Shown: positions 3,510-60,096 of the stretch, piece after piece | Layout: each line of letters starts with the position of its first letter | Numbering within the stretch: the stretch's first letter is position 1 | DNA from: Chiloscyllium plagiosum | Taxonomy: Eukaryota | Assembly: GCF_004010195.1 (NCBI RefSeq) | Contig: NC_057757.1 | Coordinates: 2,588,327 to 2,648,422, forward strand | Direction of reading: 5' to 3' | Length of the DNA: 60,096 nt | The notes under the pieces: generated by a model | The model's database searches: none | What the model saw: the letters and a program-made list of their open reading frames with translations, nothing else | Told to the model about the DNA's origin: nothing | Made by a program: the position numbers and the translations under genes

Positions 3510-3810
3510 GCCCAGGGATGTGCAGGTTAGGGTGGATTGGCCGTGCTAAATTGTCCCATAGTGCCCAGGGATGTGCAGGTTAGAGTGGATTGGCTGTGCT
3601 AAATTGTCCCATAGTGTCCAGGGATGTCCGGGTTAGGGTGGATTGGTCGTGCTAAATTGTCCCATAGTGCCCAGGGATGTCCGGGTTAGGGTGGATTGGC
3701 CGTGGTGAATGTGAGGTTCCAGGCTTGGGGTGGCTCTGGGTGGGGTACTGTTCAGTGGGTCGACATGTACTCACTGGACCAAATGTCCTGCTTCCACACT
3801 GTAGGGGACA
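3510..3810 (+). repeat. 53-bp unit array (~3.7 copies) plus HE1-type SINE tail
   Basis: Same unit as 26-598 with a few substitutions, followed by cttccacactgtaggg. Confidence 0.85.
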
Positions 3811-17217: not shown

Positions 17218-20200
17218 CTATTTCAGTTCTTTTTTCCTAAACATATTGTATGTTTTCACAATTTCTGCCCTTACAGTTTCCTTCTGTATATTTTTCCAGT
17301 CAACAGGAATATCAGCTTTGTTGGCCTTGTAAGCTTCTGCAAACTCTCTATTAAAAGTAGACAGGACATATTTCCAGTAGGTTGCTGCTTGGACACTTGT
17401 GTCAGGCGGAATATCCCAGGAAGCGAAATAATCATTTACACTGCGGTAGTCTTTATAGGGATGGAATGTATATTCAGTCTCTGCACAGCGGAATGAACTG
17501 TCAGATGCTACTGCAGAAGTGCACACTGTCGCCACAAGCTTGTTGTTGTCAATATAGCGATAACTATTTAGTCCTTCAGGTCGATGGGTTGTAGCAAAAT
17601 GCTCCTTATGTCCTGAGCCTTCACGTTCACAAGGCACTCCACAGAATGGGCACATCTTCCCACAGCCGAGAACCTGGCGGAAGATCTCTTCATCCGGCTG
17701 CACTGGCAGACGTGGCAGAACTTCTTCAATGTCGCAATTCTTGTGAAAGTCTGATGTGAGTTTCTGCTCCACGTCATCCAGGGCAGTAGTAAAATCAGTA
17801 GCAAACTCTCTGGCTGTGACAGCATTCTGAAAGAGTATAATTTCCAAACTCTCCTTGTTAATTACAAAATCATTCTTCAAAATGTCACAAAATTCTGTTA
17901 AAAATTCTGACACGTTCTCCTTCTCCATCACCATTGCTTGTTTTATGGCATCTTTTGTCTTTCGTATCAGTGCTCGGATTATTTTTGTGATGATCTCCAT
18001 AATTTTAGTTGTTCCCGTGTAATTCTTTATTATTCTTTTCCTGATCCACTGTCTTGCAAAATGCTCATAGTTTTTGATATATTGTAAGTAATTTTCCACA
18101 CGGTGCTCATCCAGCAAATCCAGTAGAATCACAGCTTGGAGATAGGCTCTGCTGCTCATTTCATGGTTTGTACAGCTGGCTTTTACACCTTCGACAATCT
18201 CCACACCAAGCTTTTTGTCAATGGCTTTCTGAAATGCGGGCTGGAGGCAGTTGCTGCACAGAGCTTGAGCCCTTTTCTGACTTTGATCTTTCTCGTGGTA
18301 AATATCTTTAAAAGTGGAATAGTAGGCATCCTTCATTGTTGTCAGACAAGTCAGTGGATCGTTCTCTCTGAAGAAATCTTGGTGCATCTTTTGGAAAATC
18401 GGCAGGACATAACCACACATATGCAGCTTTAGGTCTACCTCAAAGTTAACATTTGTGTGAAAGTGGCACCATTTCCTATTCAGTAATGTATCGTCAGTAT
18501 TTTTCAGCAATGTTTGACAGTAAGTTGGATCGAAGTCAACTTTTGCTTTCAGCTTTTCCAGTGCAAACTGCTCAGCGTTTTCAATTAAACTATCTGCAAA
18601 CACTTGCACTTCACTGCTAGATCCATTTGTAAAAAAGTCTTTAGCTCTTTGCCAATAACCCCTCTCAATATGATCCCTGGTAACTTTAAACTCGACTTGT
18701 CCTTTTTCAAATAGTTTCCCAGCGGTATCTAATCTCTGGCACACCGCACTGCCTCGATAGCGTAGATTTTGTTGCAGTTGATTTTCAAACTCAATTTCGA
18801 TGTTCTGTTGTTTGATTGACATTGCCTGAAGTGGTTGGACTGTATCTCTCCACATCTTTTCAAACTTTTCCTTGAGTTTACTGTCATTGAGTTCAGAATT
18901 TGACTCTTTGCACATTTGTAGCAGTTCACAGACCTGTTTCTGAATAATCCCCTGATACTCCTTCTGTATGTTATCCAGTTTGGCCATGCCTTTGCGCCTC
19001 TGAATTGCATCCTCACATTTGCGCTTGCTGTAAATCTCAAGCTCATTTCGCAAACTCTCAGTACTCAGGGTGAAATCCATTTTGAATTTCTCCACAAGAT
19101 GGATGTTGTCTACTTTGCTGTTGAAGTATTTTTCCAGATGTATGAGAATCATTTGCTTTTGCGCCTGGAGAATTTTATTTGTTTCTTGTATCAGAGTCTG
19201 GTACAAATCATCAAGCTGATCAAGAGGGTGATTCCCAATGTTGTTCTCAGCCTTTTCTACCTGGGAATGAATGCTTTTCCTAAATTGCCACTCCCATTCC
19301 GAGTACTTCAAACTGAGCTGGCTGTAAGCATCTGCAACTAGGCTGTTTCTAAAACTGAAAATGAAATTTTCGTACTTGACTGCATTCCATAAACCCTTCA
19401 TCCATTCTCTGAATTGGTGAATCGTAAATGGTTCTTTTCTTTCTCTGCGTTGCTTAAACAAATCAAACAGATATTTCTTTAGTTCAAATATATTTTCACT
19501 GTAGCCAGTGTTTACCGGTGCCATGGGAGGAACACCATGCCAGAGGCCTGGAATGTACCAGTTGTTCTTTTCAGGATCATATTCCATGATATCTGAAAAC
19601 TTTGTGAATTTGTGGTCTTTCTTCTCCATCTTTGCTGCTGCCTTTGTCATTTCATTTAACTGATCCAGGAGATGCTTCCTGTCTCTCATGTTCTGATCAT
19701 GTGCTGACACTTCTCCCACATTTTGATGAATGAACTGACAGTTTGGTTTGTGCCCTACCTCTTTCATCCTCAGGAAGGCGTGCACCACTATCTGCAAGAT
19801 ATCCTTCATTTCAGAAGAGTTTTCCATAGCCATGTTGACTAATGTAATGTCACTCAGTCCAACAACCAGCGTTGCAAGTTCGTTATCATGTTCATGGCTG
19901 TCCTCCAGCTTTGCCAGTTCTGGAGCTTTTAATCCTTCAGTGTCAATAATCATCAGGTACTCACTACCGATCTCCTTGCTCAGGTCTCCTGTAATTTTGA
20001 TCAACTGCATGAAGGCTCCTCTTGTACATCTCCCACTGCTCACTGCAAACTGCAAACCAAACATAGTGTTTAAGAGGGTAGACTTCCCTGTACTCTGTAC
20101 ACCCAGGACAGTCAGAACAACTATTTTAGTATCTGGTCCTAGTTTCTCTGAAAGATGTGTGAGCACAGCGCTGACCCACTGTTCAGAAATGCTGGACGCA

Positions 20201-21956
20201 TCGCCATCTAGAAGTTCAAGTGGAAAGCCATCTAACATGAGATCAGCAACCACACTAGGAAGTGATGTATACTGACGAGTATTTTCTGACAGAATGTGTT
20301 CCTGAACTAGAGTTGCCTCAGCTTCATAAATCTGTCCTATTTCTCGCATGAAATGTTCTAGCCCTAGAGAACTGTCTGATATTTGTTTGTCGAGGTCTGT
20401 GAGTTTTTTGGTTGCACCAGGTGATGCTTTATATAATTGTTTATAAGCTTCACGTAATTCAGAAAGCTCTTCTCGTGCGGTGGCATCGAGAAGATATTTG
20501 ATCCATTTCAGGAACAAGTGTCTTTCATCGTGGCTCGTATTTGCCATTACTGCGACAAACTCAGAAAGGTTTTCCGTAATGTCATACTCTCGCTGTTTCT
20601 TCCGCAAATTTGTTAGTTCAAGTCTGAGTTCGGAGTTGTATGCCTCAACAGGCATATCACCACGCTTCTTCTGGCGACAAAGCTCCTTGTCTATCTTCGA
20701 CCATTTCTTCCAGAGCTCTCCCTGTAAGGGTAGTTTTTCCATCTTATACTCTGCCACACTTCGCATGTCTCCCATGGCAGCCTCTGCCACTTCTTTAGCA
20801 CTATGGCAGTGTGGCTCATCTTCATCCACTAAAATCTCTAACTTGCGAGCTACATCAGCCATTCCCTCAATGCTCACACAGTCTGTCATGTTTTCCAAAG
20901 TCTCCTTGATGCATGATCGAATTTGTTCAACAAACATTGATGTGTTCACGTTCTTATTTTTAACAATAATGTGATTCCGTTCCAACTTCATTAATGGAGC
21001 CAGTTTCTGGAGAAAGCTGCTTGTAACAACCTGCTGGTCCAGCTGTGGATTGAGGATGAGGAAGTATCGCGTTTCCAATTCAGCGACAGACTCCAAAAAA
21101 GCGAACTCGTTGGCACCGACCTGATCGACAAATATAAAGACTGCTGAGGATACCTGAGCCAGGAAATGAACTTGGGAGCGTAGCGTACTTGCATCACCAC
21201 GGAGGTTGGCAATGAGGATGGGTTCTGTGAAGATATCAATATTTCTCTTGCCACAGGGGAGGTACCAGCAGAACTCCACTAATCCGTCCGAAATTTTCCG
21301 AGGAATATCACCACATTCCATGCTGTGAGTGACAAAGAAGTTGTGATGATGGTGGGGGTTACTTAATACCTCATTGAGAATCCTTGATTTGGAAGTACTG
21401 CACTCACCCAGGCGAATAAATGAAATAACGTGCATTGGCGTGGTCACCATTGTTGCCTCTTTGAATCCTTTACTCGCCTCGAGTGACTGAGGTCTCCACT
21501 TCTTCACAATGAAACGCATGGCCCACAGCAGTAGGGTGCTGTTGTCCTTGCTGTAATCTGGCAGTAAGAGAGGCAGCGCAAACTGACACATAGACATCTT
21601 CATCATCACCTCTTGCTGCAGGATGCTGTCAGCACAAAGGAAAACTGCAGTAATGACATCCAGTGGATTGCATGCATCGCCAGTGTCTTTTCCCGTGATA
21701 TCAAAAAGATCGGAAAAATTTGTTTGATCAACGGTCAGTTTAGGAATGTCTGCTGAGCATTTGATATTTCTGGCTGTCAAATTGAGAATCATAAGTTTCT
21801 TTAGAAAATACCACGGAATATCTTCCAAGCTTTGTGACTTTGCACACGCTATGGTTTCTGGGCCCATTTCAAGAATTTTGCTTAAAGAAAGTTTCTCTCT
21901 CAAGTACTTCTGTAGTTTCAGCTTGGAAAGCACTTCCTGAAAATTGTTTTCTTTGA
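17218..21956 (-). CDS. URGCP/GVIN1-like very large inducible GTPase, large terminal exon of a CARD6-like CARD-VLIG gene
   Basis: Uninterrupted 1571-aa ORF; P-loop GVQSTGKS (20080-20103), GRCTRG, G3 DTEG, HDNELAT, C-terminal GCGKMCPFCGVPC...H; phase-1 acceptor tttcacag|TC at 21956 is in frame. Confidence 0.92.
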
Positions 21957-22169: not shown

Positions 22170-22647
22170 GATTCATTAGAAATCTGAACTAATAAGTTAA
22201 GGAAAGAATAAAAATAATATGATGTTGTGGCCATTACAGAGACTTGGTTGAGAGAGTCACAGGACTAGCTGCTAAACTTTCCCAGGTTTCGTTGTTTTAG
22301 ATGAGATAGAGAGGGAGTTAAAAGAGGTGGAGGAATTGCATTTCAAGTCAGGGAGAACGTCGCATCTGCATTCAGAGAGGACATACTGGAGGGCTCATCC
22401 ACTGAGGCAGGAAGGGTAGAGCTCAAAAATAAGATAGGTGCAATCACTCTGATAGGATCATACAATTGCCCCGCAACAGCCACCGAGACATTGAGAAACA
22501 AATATGTAGGCAGATTATGGAAAGATGCAATAACAACAGGGTTGTCATAGTGAGTGATTTTAACTTCTCCAGTATTGACTGGGGCTTCATTAGAGCAAAA
22601 GGCTTAGATGGTGCAGAATTTGTTAAGTACATCCAAGAGGGTTTCTT
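22170..22647 (+). mobile_element. CR1 LINE endonuclease segment, left of the Tx1 insertion
   Basis: ORF 22466 has VVIVSDFNFSSIDW...FVKYIQEGF and continues at 27698. Confidence 0.85.
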
Positions 22648-22855
22648 TTTTTATTATTTCAAAAATATACTTTATTCATAAATACTTTGATCTATACAAC
22701 TGGACATGTCATACATATGTACACATTCCATTTCTTTGCGTATCGAAACAGAGTAATCATTCTTATTTACAGGTTGGTGCGATTACATTGAGCTGAGACG
22801 CCAGCAGAGCCCAAATGACTGCGTGGGCCCCTTGTTCTTCTGAGGCAGGCAGATG

Positions 22856-25800
22856 TTACATGGTGGTCTTTCCCCACCACGCCTTGGCGGCAGCTGCCCC
22901 AAGCTTCAGCGCGTCCCTCAACACATAGTCCTGGACCTTGGAATGTGCCAGTCTGCAACACTCAGTCGGGGTCAACTCCTTCAGCTGGAAGATCAACAGG
23001 TTTCGGACCACCCAGAGAGCGTCCTTCACCGAGTTGATGATCTTCCAGGCGCAGTTGATGTTCGTCTCGGTGTGCGTCCCGGGGAACAGGCCGTAGAGCA
23101 CGGAGTCCCGCGTCACAGTGCTGCTCGGGATGAACCTTGACAAACCTCACTGTATTCCTCTCCAGACTTCCTCTGCATAGGCACATTCCACAAGGAGGTG
23201 TGTGACAGTCTCGCTCCCCCCGCAGCCGCTTCGAGGGCAGCGTGCGGTGCGGCAGAGAGTCCGGGCGTACATAAAGGATCTCACAGGCAGAGCCCTTCTC
23301 ACCACCAGCCAAGCCATGTCTTGGTGCTTGTTGGAAAGTTCTGGCGATGAGGCATTCTGCCAAATGGCTTTGACAGTCTGCTCAGGGAACCGCTCGATAG
23401 GATCCGCCCTCTCCTTTTCCCGAAGGGTCTCAAGGACACTACGTGCTGACCACTTCCTGATGGACTTGTGGTCAAAGGTGTTTTTCTTCATAAACTTCTC
23501 CACGAAGAACAGGTGATCTTTTATGGATGTTGGGCAGGCTTTGAGAGTCAGGAAGTCAGTCTTCTGTTGCAGGCTTCCCAGCGTCTGACCTGCTGTTGTA
23601 TCCACTGTATTGATATGGTAAGTACAATTCAATTGCTGGTCAATGATAAATTACCAAATTATTAATCAAATTGTTCATTATTCAGTTACTGCAAACAGCT
23701 CCCGAAATTCTTAATCCATTTCTTTAAAGATACCTCAAAGAGTTAATGCAAAGTGTGATTAGTTCTGGTTATAGAAAGCTGAATATGCTGAATCTCACTC
23801 AATTATTCCCAGAGGAGATCTTACATAGTGACAGCAATGTCCAGGTGTGAGGTGGAAGTGGCTCATGAGGCACAGTGTTGTAACTGCCTTGTTGCAGTTT
23901 TACTGTCAGATTAGTGTGTTTTACATTTCAGCAGATATTCAGGCAGCAGGTGGAACAGGATGGTGACTCAACTGGGTGACGTATAGGCAAAGTTGCAAAT
24001 GTTAAATCAGCAGCTGTGAAAGGAAACTTCCTGATCCCAAATGACTGTCCTATTTATACTGCAAAGGCACGAAAGAGTGTCAGCAAATTTAATGGCTATC
24101 TAGCAATGTTGCTTTTTAATGAATATTTTGCACAGTTTGCTCAGTAGAATTATGGGCAGTTGCTCCACTAAGAGCGACACTGACTAGATTTTACCAAGAT
24201 GTTTGGTACACATCCTTTATTGATCAGAGCATTGAGTAGAGGTGTTGATCTGGTCGATTAGGCCTTTTTTTGGAATACTACCTTCAATTCTGGTCAATCG
24301 TATCTCTGAGGAGTGCGAGACTCTCAGCAATCGTCCTGCCCGGTACAGCACAGGTTTGGTCAGGGTGAATCACCGACCCCAGAGCAGACCTGACCCAGTT
24401 GGCAATGACCTTTGACAAGATTTTGTAGTCTGTGTTTAACAGTGAGATTGGTCTCCAATTTCTAATTTCCTCCCTCTCCCCCTTCTACTTGTAGATGAGG
24501 GTGATGATGCCTTTCCTCATGGATTCACTCATAGTACCTGCCCGAAGCATACTGACATACACCTCCAGCAGGTCCCGGCCAATCAAGTCCCAAAGAATAG
24601 ATTTCGACCAGTAAGCCGTCACTTCCGGGAGTTTTATTCTTTTCGAAGGACTCGAGGGCCTTGGTCAGCTCATCCAGAGATAGCGGCTGGTCCAGCCTCT
24701 CCCATGTTCCGTCGTCTAGGACCTCCGTGATAGAGGACAGGGATGACTGGGAGGCCGTGCTGTCGATTGGCTTCGAGTCATACAGACTGGCATAGAAGGA
24801 TTTACTGATCCTCATGATGTCAGCCTGAGATGACGTTGCCGAGCCATCTTCTTCCTTCAGGCTGCAGAGCACGGGGCTCTCTTTGTGCACCTTCTGGATG
24901 AAGAAACGTGAGCAGGTCTCGTCTTGCTCCACCGAGCGGACCCTGGACCGGAAGATTATCTTGGAGGCCTCCGAGGCAAAGAGCGAGGCTTGCTGGCCCT
25001 TCACCTCCTGGCCCTTCACCTCTGTGACATCGACCCCCATTGTCTGCAGCAGGAGCAGGTTCTGCATACTTTCCTGGAGTTGGGACAGTTTTCCCCGCCT
25101 CTCTCTCGCCTCCTGAACAACTTTGAGGGTGAAGAACCTCTTGATGTTCCCTTTTACTGTTTCCCACCAGTCCACTTGGGACTAAAAGAGGGGCTTCGCG
25201 GTTCTCCAACCTGCGTAGTCCCTCTTGAGCTCCTCGATGTTACCCGAGGTCAACAGCTTGGTGTTCAGTTTCCGCGTTCCCTTACCAGCCCGCTGCTCGT
25301 CCTGTAGGTGACAATTGGCCAGCAGGAGGCAGTGGTCGGAGAAGAACACGGCTTGACGTCGGTGGATCTGACCGAGAGCGTTCGGGACACAAACAGGTAA
25401 TCTATCCTTGAGCGGATAGACCCGTCTGCCCGTGACCAGGTGTATCTACGCTGCGCTCTGTCTGCAGGGGTGCTGAAGACGTCGTGCAGCTTGGCATCTT
25501 TGACCGTGTCCATCAGGGCTCTGGACGTGGCGTCCAGTTTAGTGTCCCCCCCGGCCGGATCATCCATCTGCATCGATGATACAGTTGAAGTCTCCGGCCA
25601 GAATGACCGGCCTGGACGTAGCCAGCAACAGTGGAAGCTGGTGCAGGACGGCCAACCGTTCACTCTTACCCGCTGGGGCGTACACATTGATTAGTCTCAC
25701 GGGAGCGTTTCTGTAGGTAACATCAGCAACGAGGAGGCGCCCGCCCACCACCTCCTTAACCTCGGAGATGGTGAAGTTGCCTCCCCGTAACAGGATACCC

Positions 25801-26015
25801 AGGCCCGAGGAGCGGTTATCGTTGCCCCCCGACCACACTGACGGCCCATGGGCCCACAAGCTCGACCATCTCCTGTAACTGCTGAGGTGCGGTATCCCAC
25901 ACTCCTGCAGGAACAGGACATCGGCTTTCACGTTGGCCAGGAAGGCCAGTGTTGAAACACATTGTGCAGCAGATTTTATGCTGCGCACATTAATAGTTGC
26001 AATTTTTAACCCCAT
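22856..26015 (-). pseudogene. Tx1 ORF2 (APE endonuclease, partial RT, C-terminal zinc finger), disrupted
   Basis: MGLKIATINVRS..FLQEC..NVYAP..ILAGDFN..SRIDY; KTPGSDG; CPRSGCGGSETVTHLLVEC; frameshifts; central RT replaced by foreign DNA. Confidence 0.85.
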
Positions 26016-26130
26016 TTTGTTAACAGGTTGTAAGGTTACCCATGTCCGATTGTCACTGGTCCTGCCCCTCTGGGGTAGCTGTCTGCATCCCCACGCAGCA
26101 CGCAAACTGCTGGACCCTCACAGGGCTGAT

Positions 26131-27494
26131 TTAGCTGTCCAGTTCCTCACTCGGCCCATTTGCCCGCTTCGGTGTCATCGGGCCGAGACCAGGGTCCACG
26201 CTGTCTGTTTCTATATCCGACAGCGGGGCTGTCAGAGGGTCGCTGCTCCCAGTGACCTGGAGCTGTGTGGCGGTGGGGCCCTCTTGGCTTTCACCTGGTG
26301 GGGGGTGGTAGTTTCCCATTTCCTCAAGAGGTTCGTCCCTTGGTTGGCAGTTGCTGCTCTCCTTTCTCCTCTCAGCGCTCTGCCTCTTCTTTTGGTGATG
26401 ACCCTCCTTATGCCCGTCCTCACCCTCCGAACAGCTGTCCGTGTCTTCCACCTGCAGCTGCCTTTTCCCCTTTTTCTGGGAGGTCTTGGTGGCCGGGTGG
26501 GTTTTCCTCCTCTTGTTTTGCACCACAGTCCATTCCTCTGCCTCCTTCTTTCCCTTCTCCACCTCCTCCTCCTCCGCCTGTCCTGTCGGAGATTCGCTCG
26601 GCAGCTGTCCCTCTCCGGTAGCTGTCCCTCTCCGGTAGCTGTCATCTGCTTTGTTCAGGCCTGTCCTTCCTTTTGCATGCCCCCAGACACCATTCCCTTG
26701 CCGGTTTGCGGTGCCTTGCCGTCCTTTTGTGGCCCGCCTCCGGCCATCTGCGTGTAGGTGGCGGCCCCTCGTCTTGGGCAGGCCCTGTACACGTGGCCTG
26801 CCTCCCCGCACAGATTGCAGTTCTTTTCCTCTTTGCATTCTTTGGTCGGGTGACCCTCCTTCTTGCAGTTCCGACAGATTGTGACCTTGCAGTCCGCCGC
26901 CATGTAGCCTGACCTCCCACAGGTTCGGCACACTTTCGGCTGCCCTGCATAAGTCAGGTACTCTCTGCTCCCTCCGATAGCAAAGCTGGAGGGTGGGTGG
27001 AGGATATTCCCGCTGGCATCAACCCTCAGGGTTAACTTGACCTGTCGTAAGCTGGTCCAGATCCCGAAAGGGTCAACCACATTGGTGCTTTATCCCTCGA
27101 CCTGCACATATCTTCCCAGGAACGTCAGGACATCGGTTGCTGGCAAGTAGGGGTTGTACATGTGGACCGTAACAACCCGACTCCTCTGTGCAGGAAGCAC
27201 ACACAACGGGACCGCCGACAAGATGGAGAACAGCGGCTCCCCTTCCTTCTCCTTGAAGACCTTCAGGAGCTGCTCACATTGCTTCATGCTCCTGAAGGTG
27301 ACGTCAAAGTAGCCTGCCCCAGGGAAATCCTGCAGGCAGTACACATCTGCTGCGGCGAATCCACAGCACTCGAACAACACCTTCTTGACGAACACCGTCC
27401 GATCGACTGGTGTACGCTCTTCCACCTTCTTGACAGTCACCCGGACTGTGTTGCGAACGCCCTGGCCTGGGGTGCGAGCAGCTGTTGAGGCCAT
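26131..27494 (-). pseudogene. Tx1 ORF1 (ZCCHC3-like, three zinc knuckles), disrupted
   Basis: MASTAARTPGQGVRNTVRV...YFDVTF; CRTCGRSGYMAADC, CRNCKKEGHPTKEC, CNLCGEAGHVYRAC; stops at 27090 and 26655 and a 17-bp duplication frameshift. Confidence 0.85.
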
Positions 27495-27652
27495 AGCTCT
27501 GAGGTTGGCTGGTCCCTGAATTGGCGTTAGGCCGAAGCCAGCATGAAGATCCACCAATAGCAGGTCAGCACAACCAAACGATCCTCTAATGTCCAATCAC
27601 GATCCAGCGATGATCTCCACTAGCTCTGATGACTCGCAACTTGACTCCTGTC

Positions 27653-27699
27653 CTGATAAGAACAGACACTTGATCTTAGCCAAAAGGCCGAGAAGCGAT
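27653..27699 (-). pseudogene. U2 snRNA 5' fragment (nt 1-52, 5-nt deletion) forming the retrotransposon 5' end
   Basis: ATCGCTTCTCGGCCTTTTGGCTAAGATCAAGTGT then CTGTTCTTATCAG equals vertebrate U2 nt 1-34 plus 40-52. Confidence 0.92.
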
Positions 27700-30040
27700 C
27701 CAAGAGGGTTTCTTGGAACAGTATGTGGATAGTCAAACTGCAGGAGGAGCCATACTGGACCTTGTAATGGCTAGTGAGCCTGGCAAGGTGACTGACCTTT
27801 TAGTGGGTGCACATTTTGGAAACAGTGGTCACAACCCCTTAAGTTTTAAGATTGATATGAATAAGGATAAGTCAAGACCTTGTGGGAATGTACTAAACTG
27901 GGGAAGGGCAAATTATGTCAGTATTAGGCAGGAACTAGGGAGTATTCATTGGGAGGAGCTTGTTATTGGGCAAGTCCACATTTGGCATGTGGGAATTGTT
28001 TAAAGACCTACTGATCAGAGTTGAGGACTGGCATGTTCTTAAGGATGAAAGACAAGGATGGCAAGGTAAGGGACCCTTAGATAATGAGGGAGGTTCTGAA
28101 TTTAGCCAAAAGGGAAAAAGGGGCATATGTAAATTTTCGAAAATTGGACAAGGCCCATGAGGAATATAAAGAAAGCAGAGTAGAACTCAAGCAGGAAATT
28201 AGGAGAGCAAGAAGGGGCCATGAAATGACCTTGGAGAGTAGGGTTAAAGAGAATCCCAAGGCATTCTATCTTGACATTAAAAATAAAAGGAAAGCTAAAG
28301 AGAAGGTAAGACCACTCCACAATAAAGGAGGGAACTTATGTTTGGATGAGATCCTAAATGAGTGCTTTGCACTGGTGTTCACCCAGGAGAAGGATATGGA
28401 GGATAGTGAGATTAGAGTGGAGCATGCTAATATGCTAGGGCATTTTGAGATCAAGGAAAAAGTGGTAGTGGGTCTCTTGAAGAGTATTAAGGTAGATAAA
28501 TTTCCAGGGCCTGATAGTTTCTACCCCAGGTTATTGAGACAGGCGAGAGAGGAGATTGCTGGGGCCTTGACCAAGATTTCTGCATCCTCACTAGTCACTG
28601 GTGTGGTCCTGCAGGACTGGCGAGTAGGTAATATTGTTACTCTGTTCAAGAAGGGAAATAGTAATAATTGAGGATGGTGAGTCTCACTTCAGTAGTTGGG
28701 AAGCTATTGAAGAGAATTCTTAGGGATAGAATTTACGCATATTTGGAAAAGTGTGGCCTAATTAAGTACATCCAAGAGGGTTTCTTGAAACAGTATGTGG
28801 ATAGTCCAACTGCCGTACTGAACCTTGTATTGGCTTTGAGCGGGACAGGTCATGTCTTACTAACTTAATTACATTTTTCGAGGAGATGGCAAAGTGATCA
28901 TTGAGGGTAGAGCAGTGGATGTTGTCTGTATGGATTTTAGTAAGGCTTTAAACAAGATCCCTCAATGGTAGGTTCATGTAGAAGATTAAGATGCATGGAA
29001 TCCATGGTAACTTGGCCATTTGCAATCAGAGTTGGCTTGCCCAAAGAAGGCAGAGGATAGTGGTGGGAGGGTGACTTTCAGGCTGGAGATCTGAGACTGG
29101 TGGTGTTCTGCATAGATCCCATACTCTGCTATTTGTGATATATGTAAATTACTTGGATGAAAATGTAGATTTTAGCAAGTTTGCAGTAGACACAAAGATC
29201 GATGGGGTTGTAGAATGTTATCAAAGGATACACATCAAAGGATATAGATCAGCTGCAGATATGGGCAAGAAAATAGCAGATGAAGTTTAATCCCAGTAAG
29301 CGTGAGGTGCTGTACTTTGGGACATAAATGTGAAGGAAATGTATCCAGTTAATGGCGGGACCCTGAACAGCATTGATATACAGAGGGATCTGAGGGTTCA
29401 AGTCCATAGTTCCCTGAAAGTGGCCACCCAAGTGGATAGGCTGGTAAAGAAGGCATAAGGCATGCTTGCTTTTATTGGTTGGGGAATTGAGTACAAGAGT
29501 CAGGATGTCATGTTGCAGCTTTATGAGAGTTTGGTTAGGCCAAACACTGAAGAGTATTGCATTCAGTTCTGGTCGCCACATTACAGGAAAGATGTGGAGA
29601 GTTTAGAGAGGGTGCAGAAGGATGATGTGTGGATTAAATGGTATAAGCTATAAGGAGAGGCGAGAAATTCTCAGGTTGTTTTCTCTGGAGCAGCGGAAGC
29701 TGAAGGGTGATTTGGTAGCAGTCTATAAAATTATGAGATGCATAGATAGGGATGACGGTCAGAATCTTTTTTCCCAGAGTTAAAATATCTAATACTAGGG
29801 GCATGCATTTGAGATGATGGAGGGAACGTTTTTTACAGAGTGTGGTAGGAGTCTGGAATGTGCTGCCAGGGATGATGGTGGAAGCACATACAAAAGAAGC
29901 ATTCAGGAGACATTTAGATAAGCACGTGAATCTGCAAGAAATGGAGGGATATGGATCAAGATTAAGCAGAAGGGATTAGTTTAATTTGGTATCATGTTCA
30001 GCACAACATGGTGGGCCAAAAGGTCCATTCCTGTGCTATA
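27698..30040 (+). mobile_element. CR1 LINE ORF2 remainder and 3' end, right of the Tx1 insertion
   Basis: AILDLV, KENPKAFY, KFPGPDS, VSLTSVVGK, YCIQFWSPHYRKD fragments in order. Confidence 0.88.
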
Positions 30041-31321: not shown

Positions 31322-31625
31322 CTCTTGTGGCAAGATTAAATCCAACCAATATTTCATCCACTCCTGGGAATTCACTCTGTAAACTTTGCAGAACTCTTAG
31401 AAAGATCTCACAAGTCTCCTCTCCCTTCAGAACCACAGTGTTTATAATTGTTCTGATCTTATCCTTGGGATCTGTGATCCCATCAATACGATTATACTCA
31501 TCCACTTTGAAGATGAGCATCGCATCGAACTCATCAAGGAGAACGTTTGGTTGCTCTTTCAGAATGTCAATGAGCGTTCTGCGATTTTTCCGTAGAATGT
31601 CTGATGGAATCTGTTCCGAAGCCAT
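31322..31625 (-). CDS. CARD-domain exon (CARD6-like), first coding exon of the CARD-VLIG gene
   Basis: MASEQIPSDILRKNRRTLIDIL...DEY...KGEETCEIFLRVL is a typical CARD; Kozak aaaATGG; acceptor at 31651; donor G|gtgagt at 31322 (phase 1). Confidence 0.85.
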
Positions 31626-32959
31626 TTTGTGGGACAGTTACTTAGCAACACCTGTGAGGAAATACAAAGTTGTTAGCCGAATCGTTAATAGACTTTGAAG
31701 CAATAAATTAGAAACATTAATTCTCTCTGTGCTATTCTTACCTTCTTCTATAACAATGTAAAATCTGAAGCTTGTTGATAGACTCAGAGCCAGTGCTCCT
31801 ACTATACCAATGAAAACTACAAAATTTAATTTAGTTGTGTTTGAACTGTAATTGTTTAAAAATAAAAGACACTTATTTATGCTCAGAATGATGCGCTGGC
31901 TTTGGAAGACCAGAGGAGGTTTACAAGAACAAACCTGGGGATGAAGGGCTTGACATGTGAGGAGTGGTTAAGGACTCTGGGTCTGTACTCGATGGAGTTT
32001 AGAAGAATCAGGGGGGAATCTGATTGAAACTTATAGAACACTGGACGAGGAGAAGGTATTTCCGTTAGTCACAGAGAGTAGTACCTGAGGCCACAGCCTC
32101 AGAGTGAAGGGATGACCCTTTAGAACTGAGATGAGGTGGAATTTCTTCAGCCAGAGGTTGGTGAATCTTAGAAATCCTACAGTGTGCAAATCAGGCCCTT
32201 CAGCCCAACAGCAACCCTCCAAAGAGTAACCCGTGCAGACCCATTCCCCCTACTCTATATTTACCCCTGACTAATGCACCTAACCTAGGCATCCCTGAAC
32301 ACTATGGGTAATTCAGTGTGGCCATTTCACCTGGCCTGCACATCTTTGTGCCCAACCAACACCTGGCCCAACCAATCAAGAACCTATCTATCTCTGTCTT
32401 AAAGACACTCGATGACAAAGCCTAGAAATTACACTAAAAAATAAGTGGCAATTCTTTGATTCATCCAAACCTTTAACTTTTCCATCCATTGGCAGGCACC
32501 AGGCTTTGTTTTGGACTCCCGAGTTATCAACTGAAGGACTGGTGCTTTCAGAGAGTCTAATATAATTCCCTGAAGATCCTCCCACCTTTTGCAAAACAGC
32601 AACATGTGATTTCCAATAAACACTGAGTATAGTTTCTATTGGTGGCATACGTCACTCCCGGGCAATAGTTACAATCACAATGTATGGATAATTCCTCAGA
32701 ATCTGTACTTGAAAGGCTGGATGTTTCTTCTCTTTCCTTTGACCTTGCACTACAGTATCAATGATATATGGAGATTACAGTGCTTATCTCAGGACAAATT
32801 AACCCTACAGAACAAGAAAATCCAATCTTTGATTTCCCTTGCTGTAGGGGAATAAAGATTAAAATAATAGCAATTGTCATTTTTGATAATGGATTGGATC
32901 AGTATGACAGCTTTGATAGAAAATTTGAGAATGGAATTGCAAACACAATTGCAAGCAAG

Positions 32960-44900: not shown

Positions 44901-45072
44901 CTCTCCAAAAAGAGACACCCCAGCACTGAGGCAGCAGTGCTAACCATTGAGCCACCCATGCTGCCTCAAGGGATTGGTCAGAGGAACCTCACCCCATGAA
45001 CATTCTAAAAAACAGGTGAGTAGCAACATGCAAACTCAAGTTAAACAAAGCTAGTTTCAGTTAAGCAGTTAC

Positions 45073-45276
45073 CTGTTATAAACCAGATGAAGGAAAACAG
45101 TGAGATGAGACTTTTCCAAACTCTGCCAATTCTATGAAAAGCCAACATATTGCTTTCATCATTTGGAGCACATGAAACTAGTGAAATCATCACAAAGAAC
45201 AGGGTAAAGCTACCAGAGACAATCAAATAAATTGGGATCAGGTACTGCTTGGGACAGGAATCCAAATAGACAGTAC
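45073..45276 (-). CDS. TMEM272-like gene copy 1, coding exon 3
   Basis: (G)TVYLDSCPKQYLIPIYLIVSG...LFSFIWFIT; 204 nt, phase 1 to 1, canonical ag/gt. Confidence 0.88.
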
Positions 45277-45634
45277 CTATATGGGAAGGAGAAAAGAAAA
45301 AAAAAGTGTCAGAAGTGATTTGTTGCAAACTTAATGTCACCATAAATCTGACTATTTTGAGAACAAAGTTACTCTAGTTTTTAATTTTAAGCTGTTGTTA
45401 AAAACATGGAAGTGGTCAAATCCTTAGAACCAAAGGAAGAATGCTGCTCCTAATATTGAGCCAAGCTTGGTACAGGAATCCAAGCCATTTATATGCAGCT
45501 TAACTATTTTAATGTCAAGCATAGCTATGACTAGATTACATTAAATCTAACAAGCTTGCCAAAAACAGACAAACAATCCAAGTGAACAGCTTTTAAATTC
45601 ATGCCACCAACATCCTTTATTATTGAAATCTCAC

Positions 45635-56413: not shown

Positions 56414-56616
56414 TCAAGAGCTTGAAAAATTCTTGGTCAGAACCAAGGTTCCACCACAAATACACACACAAAATCCAACAAGCATCATGAGCCCGAGAAT
56501 GATATAAACAGCAGTGGTGATCCAGAAGGCAAAGAGGTATAGTGTTTTGTCGCAATAATTGGGAGAAGCTTTGTCAATATAATCTGGCTGGTAGATGCTG
56601 TAGATCCAAACGCTTC
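56414..56616 (-). CDS. TMEM272-like gene copy 2, last exon (upstream exons not seen in the window)
   Basis: cttccag|GA AGC GTT TGG; (G)SVWIYSIYQPDYIDKASPNYCDKTLYLFAFW...NFSSS*; same phase and motif as copy 1; AATAAA at 56149-56154 and 56086-56091. Confidence 0.85.
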
Positions 56617-57072
56617 CTGGAAGAGATGAGGAATGCAATATTTGACATTTAATCCTCAATGTCTTTTTGATGTTACAAATACACTTTGATATTAAGAAGC
56701 GACACAGATCACACCTTCTTCGGGATATGTACTGAAAGTACTTTTGATCTCAAAATGAAACACCGCTCCCCTTACTCTCACTTTTTATTGAGTTTGCAAG
56801 TTTCAGGCTGGTTGGATGTTTGCTATGAAACTGGATTTAGAGTCAGACGGTCATGCAGTATGGAAACAGACCCTTTGGCCCAACTCGTCTATGCTGACCA
56901 GGTTTCCTAAGCTAACCTAGGCCCATTTAGAGTCATAGAGGCATAGAGATGTACAGCATGGAAACAGACCCTTCGGTCCAACCTGTCCATGCCGACCAGA
57001 TATCCCAACCCAATCTAGTCCCACCTGCCAGCACCCGGCCCATATCCCTCCAAACCCTTCCTATTCATATAC

Positions 57073-58274: not shown

Positions 58275-59237
58275 CCCGTTGTACTCTGAGATAATCTTTT
58301 TTACTGTCCACTATACAAATCTATTTTGGTGTTATCTGCAAACTTACTAACTATACCTACTATATTCTTATCCAAATCATTCATATAAATGACAAACAGC
58401 AGTGGACTCTGATCCTTGCCACACGCTGCTGGTCACAGACCTCGTTTCTGAAAAATAACTGTCTACCACCACCTTTTGTCTCTTACCTTTAAGCCAATTT
58501 TGTATCCAATTGACTAGCTCTCCCTGGATCCCATGTGATCTAACATTACGAACCACTCTACCATCCTGGGACCTTGTCGAAGGCCTTGCTAAAATCCATT
58601 TAGACAACGTCTACCACTCTGCCTTCATCTATCTTCTTGTTCACCTCTTCCAAAAAAACTCAATCAAATATGTATCCCATGAACAAAGCCACGCTGACTA
58701 TCCCTCATCGGTCCATGCCTCCTCAAATGCCCATAAACACTGCCTCTCAGAACCCCCCTCCAACAACTTACCCGCCACTAACATCAGGCTCACCGGTCTA
58801 CACATCCCTGGCTTTTACTTTTAGCTCTTTTTAGATAAAGGCACAACATTAGCCTTCCAGACCCTCACCCATGACTGTCGATGATACAAATATCTCTATT
58901 AGTGGCCCCGCAATTACTTTCCCAGACTTCCCCCAAAATCCTGGGATAGACCTGATCAGGCCCCAGGGATTTATGGGTTTGAAGACCTCCAGCACCTTGT
59001 CTTTGCTAATGTGGACTTCTTTTCCAGACAGCAGTATTCAGTTCCCTGAGTTCCCCAGCTTCCATGTCTATTCCCACAGTAAATACTGATGAGAAATATT
59101 GGTTTGGGATCTCATTCTTTAAGAAGAGGGAATCTGTGTCACTGAGGCACACAGGATGAAGGCAAGAGAAACCATTCAGTGACTATTTCATAGAATCATA
59201 GAATCTCGGAATCCCTACAGTGTGGAAACAGGCTGTG

Positions 59238-59555
59238 AGACAATTTAGCATGACCAATCCACCCTAACCTGCACGTCCCTGGACACTATGGGACAATTTA
59301 GCACGGCCAATCCACCCTAACCTGCACGTCCCTGGGCACTATGGGACAATTTAGCATCGCCAATCCACCCTAACCTGCACATCCCTGGGCACTATGGGAC
59401 AATTTAGCACGGCCAATCCACCCTAACCTGCACATTCCTGGGGACTATGGAACAATTTATCACGGCCAATCCACCCTAAACTGCACATTCCTGGGGACTA
59501 TGGAACAATTTAGCACGGCCAATCCACCCTAACCTGCACATCCGTGGACACTGTG
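59238..59555 (-). repeat. 53-bp tandem array (~6 copies), reverse complement of the 26-598 unit
   Basis: acaatttagcacggccaatccaccctaacctgcacatccctgggcactatggg repeats with variants. Confidence 0.9.
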
Positions 59556-59559
59556 TGAC

Positions 59560-60096
59560 AATTTATTTCCGCAACTACACTGGCCCCACCCCCCACCTTT
59601 TCCTCCGCTACATCGATGACTGTATCGGCGCCGCCTCGTGCTCCCACGAGGAGGTTGAACAGTTCATCCACTTCACCAACACCTTCCACCCCGACCTCAA
59701 ATTCACCTGGACAGTCTCAGATTCCTCCCTCCCCTTCCTTGACTTTCTATTTCTATCTCAGGCGACCGAATCAACACAGACATCTACTAAAAACCGATCG
59801 ACTCCCACAGCTACCTGGACGACACCTCCTCCCATCCTGCCCCCTGTAAAAACACCATCCCATTCTCCCAATTCCTTCGACTCCGCCACAACTGCTCCCA
59901 GGAGGACCAGTTCCAAAAAAGCACATCCCAGATGACCTCCTTCTTCAAGGACCGCAATTTCCCACCTCCCTCCAAGGCCCCAAAGGAAACTTCCATATCC
60001 GCCACAGATTCACCTGCACCTCCACACACATCATCTATTGCATCCTCTGCACCCGATGTGGCCCCCTCTATATTGGGGAGACAGGCCGCCGACTTG
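59560..60096 (+). mobile_element. Penelope-like element fragment (RT and GIY-YIG endonuclease start), internally deleted, runs off the window
   Basis: FLRYIDDCIG...LKFTWT...LPFLD; last frame reads FTCTSTHIIYCILCTRCGPLYIGETGRRL. Confidence 0.88.

Follow-up and report, generated by a model that had tools for sequence, protein, structure and literature searches.

The promoters of snRNA genes lie upstream of the gene, and how retroposons headed by snRNA sequence are transcribed is a question that PMC4494074 leaves open. A LINE of Chiloscyllium plagiosum that starts with the front of U2 snRNA and lies away from any U2 gene raises the same question at a single locus: from which sources, and from which promoter, was its RNA made? 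We analysed this copy within a 60,096-nt stretch of contig NC_057757.1 (the whole of which is hereafter called the window) and searched for its relatives in the assembly (3.56 Gb, 101,977 contigs).

The U2-headed copy and its host locus

The element is oriented on the minus strand and is bracketed by perfect 17-bp target-site duplications (TSDs) (Table 1). A first-pass annotation of the window had placed a TSD around the element, an A-rich tail next to the left repeat, and a 3' flank other than U2 sequence, all of which agree with our results, the tail and poly(A) signal adjoining the left repeat. It had also placed U2 nt 1 directly against the right repeat; the U2 head is real, but the TSD shares its first two bases with U2 nt 1–2, which leaves a 2-nt uncertainty in where +1 lies in this copy. 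When the flanks were joined with one copy of the repeat, they formed a single open endonuclease-like frame of a host LINE. The host had been called a CR1; its LINE nature holds, whereas the CR1 type is what we take its peptide to represent, and Pfam assigned no family to a nearby host LINE frame. A second short piece of host LINE at window positions 28766–28810 carries the same 17-bp site, which is empty there. The splice sites of the CARD and URGCP/VLIG exons, which surround the element, are phase-compatible, and the element appears to lie within the CARD–VLIG intron, as previously proposed. Elsewhere in the window, a tandem array with a 53-bp unit occupies positions 12–598, with related pieces near 3510–3704, 49000, and 59230–59565, and two exon-like frames on the minus strand (45041–45373 and 56414–56749) resemble a membrane protein gene, presumably TMEM272-like.

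Table 1. Features of the U2-headed element and its surroundings (window coordinates)
Feature	Position	Strand	Remarks
URGCP/VLIG GTPase exon (PF25683) of host gene	17218–21956	−	
Host LINE, left part	22200–22630	+	Left limit of host unmapped
TSD copy at 3' end of element	22631–22647	.	Perfect direct repeat, 17 bp at most
A-rich tail and poly(A) signal	22648–22676	−	Signal at 22671–22676; family tail motif
3' UTR	22677–22855	−	
ORF2, C-terminal part, zf-RVT region	22856–23517	−	By match to other copies
Foreign segment (~780 bp)	23518–24296	.	In place of ~1 kb of RT core
ORF2, N-terminal part	24297–26015	−	AP-endonuclease (PF03372), linker, RT start; frameshifted
ORF1	26023–27494	−	ZCCHC3-type RNA-binding domains and zinc knuckles (domains from open copy L077); frameshifted here
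ORF1 insertion hot spot of other copies	27340–27352	−	Empty in window copy
5' UTR core	27495–27652	−	~95% common to two different bodies
U2 head	27653–27699	−	U2 nt 1–34 and 40–52, canonical-type U2, 5-nt deletion between
TSD copy at 5' end of element	27698–27714	.	Perfect 17-bp direct repeat; overlaps U2 nt 1–2
Host LINE, right part	27715–28671	+	Right limit of host unmapped
CARD exon (PF00619) of host gene	31322–31651	−	

The minus-strand match to U2, which starts at position 27699, has an E-value of 1.6e-6 and 39.4 bits, against an Rfam gathering score of 46; no Rfam match was found in the window at the gathering score, and the head is visible only at the E-value setting. The five bases missing from the head belong to the branch-point-pairing stretch of U2. 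The foreign segment has a GC content of 40%, compared with 56%, and had no long match among the other loci compared. Because ORF1 and ORF2 are both frameshifted and the RT core is replaced, the window element is a dead copy. The 5-nt deletion, the foreign segment at 23518–24296, and the frameshifts in both ORFs had not been noticed in the first-pass annotation.

The domain composition is of the Tx1 type, with an AP-type endonuclease, RT, and zinc finger in ORF2, and RNA-binding domains and zinc knuckles in ORF1 (PF00078, PF13966, PF23057, PF23058, and PF00098 in family copies; PF03372 in the window). The nearest proteins in sequence searches were unnamed amphibian and fish LINE proteins at ~33–45%; one distant match was labelled Transposon TX1 149 kDa, and none of the matches to the family was named Keno.

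The U2 head is a family trait

A head-free query, consisting of the UTR minus the head, returned 564 candidates, and 39 of the best 40, including the window copy, carried the head sequence. These best 40 of 564 are the nearest to the UTR of the window copy and thus sample one subfamily. The exact head-junction pattern matched 98 sites on many contigs, with no match for the control; the junction is fixed by the search pattern for these 98, and the copies found with the head-free query show the same one. The 5-nt deletion was present in 96 of the 98 heads. The two intact heads match the canonical U2 gene at 100% through nt 52, which means that the original head was U2 1–52. By the suffix rule, the head starts at U2 nt 1 in 31 of the 98 copies and within nt 1–9 in 78. 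The first-pass annotation would have been refuted had other full-length copies lacked the head, which was not the case. A one-off chimera of snRNA and LINE, such as a template switch that made only the window copy, would be expected to show variable junctions, an snRNA piece without mutations, and a truncated LINE; it was rejected on these counts (the head in 39/40 of the copies scored, one junction in 98/98, and one deletion in 96/98), and the recurrence of the same junction and deletion in nearly all copies also effectively rules out separate chimeras.

The 5' ends themselves suggest where the RNA began. Among the 34 copies that begin at U2 +1, 24 have a G at −1, against a background of 23.7% (p 1e-8), and no comparable G excess was found at positions −2 to −6; five promoter-bearing U2 loci have a T at −1. 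In one copy (L091), a single G stands between the duplication and +1, and in others, including the window copy, the −1 G doubles as a base of the target. At the junctions of full-length L1 copies, an additional G has been read as a mark of the cap (PMC11702581). The RNA of the element was therefore likely capped at U2 +1, and a cap-derived G, which would be consistent with an m7G cap, marks the capped 5' end at +1, not the position of the promoter. Three copies (L085, L095, and L164) share a different 5' end, composed of G, U2 nt 1–2, and then nt 4 onward, without nt 3, which is possibly the mark of a second source allele.

The head is combined with more than one body. Of 96 copies of the UTR core, 81 have the window-type head and nine have a second head, which consists of another U2 variant and a spacer; two lie directly behind a variant U2 gene, one is headless, and three are uninformative. 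Among the 98 exact heads, the deleted head occurs on the full-length body in 43 copies and on another body in 19, with 36 unassigned. The second body is 76% alike to the full-length one and is mostly a 1.6–2.1-kb, ORF1-only form, and the UTRs are 95% alike across the two. Both nesting at the ORF1 hot spot (see below) within one source and a swappable internal promoter explain why the two bodies share head and UTR. The short ORF1-only copies (L082, L101, L105, L113, L114, and others), which have the same U2 head and tail, are half-LINE-like. Some headed copies (L077, L088, and L110) form tandems in which they immediately follow another tail of the family, and in L077 and L088 the same short spacer is repeated after the copy's own tail.

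Target sites and a second insertion hot spot

Duplications were resolved for 45 insertions, of which four were dropped (three beside another tail and one segmental duplicate). At the remaining 41 sites, the junction has an A in 37 cases, the site starts with AW in 36, and a pyrimidine precedes it in 37 (67% expected, p 6e-4). The duplications are 10–24 bp long, with a median of 17 for the 35 headed copies. The off-target consensus is therefore Y|AW, which is like the U2 site and agrees with the T|A step found at nt 37/38 of U2. An L1-type TT|AAAA target, which the first-pass annotation had read at the window copy, was rejected: the window site matches TTAAAA at three of six positions, none of the 41 sites matches at all six and one matches at five, and the L1-like label has no support beyond priming on A.

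The recurrent flanks seen were the ORF1 of the family itself, U2, and one CR1-like site. In ORF1, 56 tails end at a single hot spot, compared with none at a control position ~80 nt away. The junctions there are staggered, and the 5' part of the host copy is found upstream in five cases; the loci include L107, L113, and L207–L216. By eye, the ORF1 hot spot resembles U2 nt 31–42, and a copy of it is also present in the UTR of the second head type. At the CR1-like site, which belongs to an abundant repeat, four of 176 distinct tail flanks were found (L102, L119, L128, and L226).

Family copies behind U2 promoters

The dispersed headed copies do not carry a U2 promoter upstream (0/98). When the upstream flanks of all 98 (one of them just 40 nt long) were compared with three U2 upstream regions, the best local alignment score was 26, whereas true promoter-bearing loci scored 135–157 within a U2 class and 51–58 across classes. 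In contrast to the headed copies, 6 of 13 distinct U2-promoter loci contain family sequence directly after U2 nt ~35–57; among the other seven, three are intact genes, one is broken by another repeat, and three are uninformative. Locus L179 contains a full-length copy between the promoter with U2 1–36 and U2 from about nt 25 onward, and locus L180 consists of U2 1–53, two stacked pieces, and then U2 from nt 41–42. Both thus retain the 3' half of U2, along with a duplicated stretch of it. Among the six on-target loci, these two are the ones with a visible U2 3' half; three others have gaps, and none was seen in L181.

All six on-target copies lie in U2 genes of a variant class, whereas the head of the window copy is of the canonical class, and the single canonical U2 gene found contains no element within its 10-kb stretch. 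No locus with a promoter and the deleted head was found with the PSE-plus-U2 pattern (5 loci) or in searches with promoter DNA (13 loci). The source of the deleted head is accordingly absent from the assembly, which could reflect collapse or turnover of the U2 array. A tree of a 550-nt segment of ORF2, with the 19 rows, three of them on-target, that were the full set covering 80% of it, had no supported fork and a median end branch of 0.034, and on- and off-target copies were not separated; it therefore neither orders nor counts the sources.

The genome contains at least three or four classes of U2 sequence, ~76–89% alike (L031, L034, L042, and L033). In the variant class, which has its own promoter, bases are changed within the branch-point-pairing region and close to it. 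A further U2 variant occurs as dispersed full-length copies, mostly from +1 and without an A tail (L035–L040, L045, and L197); they lack the promoters found here, no promoter-bearing parent gene was found for them, and they are likely retrocopies or a SINEU-3-like family.

U2 sequence carried behind the tail

An exact pattern for a family tail followed by U2 matched eight times and its control not at all, compared with 3,039 family tails found with a slightly different pattern. Three of the eight matches are in the promoter loci L179 and L180, and five are dispersed. Each dispersed match consists of a 5'-truncated element, the tail, U2 from nt 38–42, and a short second piece of tail, with no U2 front upstream. 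Non-U2 duplications enclose two of them (L306 and L308), each of which therefore moved as a single unit. In L305, U2 nt 38–100 is 100% identical to the canonical gene. The U2 flank begins at nt 39 in L305 and L306, in transduced form, and at nt ~25–42 elsewhere. The sources of the five dispersed copies consequently had U2 behind them, and these U2 stretches probably had promoters; on-target copies thus likely served as sources. Eight U2-flanked tails against 3,039 are nevertheless few if all copies come from such sources, and U2 was the 3' flank in 0/30 and 0/30 of two samples of tails. No clear 3' transduction of non-U2 sequence was found among the 98 headed copies, a weak test in that the tail was out of view for 27 of them and 39 lacked a duplication by the criteria applied; four duplications lie away from the first scored tail, for which mutation of the tail, the presence of a second one, or nesting accounts.

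Sources and transcription of the family

From these sequence comparisons, we consider this a relaxed Keno-type Tx1 family whose copies probably derive from sources within U2 genes, with the U2 promoter driving transcription. A full-length copy would have inserted into a canonical U2 gene at the site used by Keno, with the first nick near nt 38 and the second near nt 52, which would leave exactly U2 1–52 before the on-target copy. The U2 promoter would then have made a capped RNA that starts at U2 +1, continues past nt 52 into the element, and ends at the element's own poly(A) signal. The disabled U2 allele that held the element would have lost 5 nt, and the RNA of this deleted allele would have seeded the ~100 headed copies, and many more 5'-truncated ones, at loose Y|AW sites. 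The dispersed copies would be promoterless dead ends, and the family would persist solely via those rare copies that reinsert into a U2 gene. Two proposals of the first-pass annotation meet in this scheme. Off-target integration of RNA from a hijacked U2 promoter gains from the finding of the family behind real U2 promoters, and use of such a promoter, although inferred, is the best supported of the readings. The other, a lineage that lost specificity and kept its U2 head, describes a family that is almost wholly off-target, but not one that still enters U2 genes.

More tentatively, it is almost as likely as not that the family represents a LINE without a promoter of its own, in which a few live sources in U2 genes produce thousands of off-target dead ends, the 5' end is rebuilt from the U2 gene class that harbours the source at the time, and an snRNA promoter drives a kilobase-sized, polyadenylated, translated RNA. 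If true, such a scheme would account for the transcription of both SINEU and snRNA-headed LINEs. One family here holds the intermediates (on-target copies behind promoters, dispersed copies with a U2 front, U2 3' transductions, and a cap-like G); it represents a stage between strictly site-specific and free-ranging LINEs and makes the question of transcription directly testable. No paper that describes a U2-promoter source route was found in the mostly open-access literature searched.

Alternatively, the head would go back to a single capture from an on-target ancestor, and the head and UTR would now act as an internal Pol II promoter, the dispersed copies being the sources. The absence of a promoter-plus-deleted-head locus from those found, the U2 flank on only eight of ~3,000 tails, the same head-and-UTR cassette on two bodies, and the further 5' end without nt 3 shared by three copies are all what this would predict. 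We nevertheless regard it as unlikely, because every identifiable transduced flank is U2, the heads derive from different U2 classes, and the switch of bodies falls at the ORF1 hot spot, where a nested insertion in one source explains it; furthermore, no internal snRNA promoter is reported in PMC4494074. It is very improbable that dispersed copies served as sources through readthrough transcription from unrelated promoters upstream, followed by trimming or processing at the head. Upstream transcription has been proposed for SINEU (PMC4494074), and in three copies (L101, L295, and L298) the head is indeed preceded by additional 5' sequence from the family's ORF1, but the cap-like G (24/34) and the exact starts at nt 1 (31/98) point to initiation at +1, and the upstream flanks are otherwise unrelated, save in tandem, nested, or duplicated copies. 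That U2 snRNA and element RNA were joined anew for every headed copy, through template switching or RNA ligation as in U6/L1, is scarcely credible: such chimeras are common for L1 (bioRxiv 10.1101/2025.02.02.635956) and a template switch is favoured for SINEU heads (PMC4494074), but the deletion shared here is absent from the canonical gene and largely refutes this origin, the LINE part here has a complete 5' end whereas U6/L1 chimeras have a truncated L1 (bioRxiv 10.1101/2025.02.02.635956), and a single ancient switch would come under the internal-promoter explanation.

Relationship to known U2-associated retroposons

Keno is a U2 snRNA gene-specific member of the Tx1 clade (PMC4640811, PMC4494074, PMC6136364), and in Keno and Utopia the U2 3' flank starts at nt 39 (PMC4640811, PMC6136364). 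The present family resembles Keno as an AP-endonuclease LINE with two ORFs and insertions in U2 genes, with a flank from nt 39 in L305 and L306. Unlike in Keno, far below 1% of its tails are U2-flanked, its on-target nicks are spread over nt ~25 to ~42, its U2 front travels with the dispersed copies, and it has a second hot spot in its own ORF1. Under Kojima's working rule, specificity means that >20% of flanks lie in the target (PMC4494074); the eight U2-flanked tails against 3,039 tails, and the sampled 3' flanks, fall below this. The family thus works like Keno and shares the U2 site, but fails Keno's test of specificity.

Dispersed Tx1 families with a U2 head have already been described, including the crocodilian Tx1-11_Crp; three other Tx1-Mar families have U1 heads, and the group clusters with Keno (PMC4494074). 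In these families the U2- or U1-derived head occurs outside snRNA genes (PMC4494074), and a U2-derived 5' end outside U2 genes is fixed in the present family, as in the Tx1-11_Crp type. Tx1-Mar elements prefer a Mariner transposon, and their heads have been ascribed to template switching (PMC4494074); the present family differs from Tx1-Mar as described there in its cap-like G, its U2 transductions, and its on-target copies downstream of U2 promoters. We place it among the U2-headed Tx1 families, and the evidence on the origin of the head is better here.

SINEU-1, -2, and -3 likewise have a U2-derived head and an A tail, with no promoter found, but they are short and non-coding (PMC4494074), whereas the present family is protein-coding and is accompanied by its ORF1-only 1.6–2.1-kb form. 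Reptile Utopia is another U2-targeting lineage, of weak U2 specificity, in which few copies are still U2-flanked, as here, but it has a restriction-like endonuclease and belongs to another clade (PMC4640811). R2 in 28S rRNA genes also relies on the promoter of its target gene (cited in PMC4494074); a ribozyme releases R2 from the co-transcript, and R2 remains on target (PMC4494074), whereas the present family keeps the front of its target.
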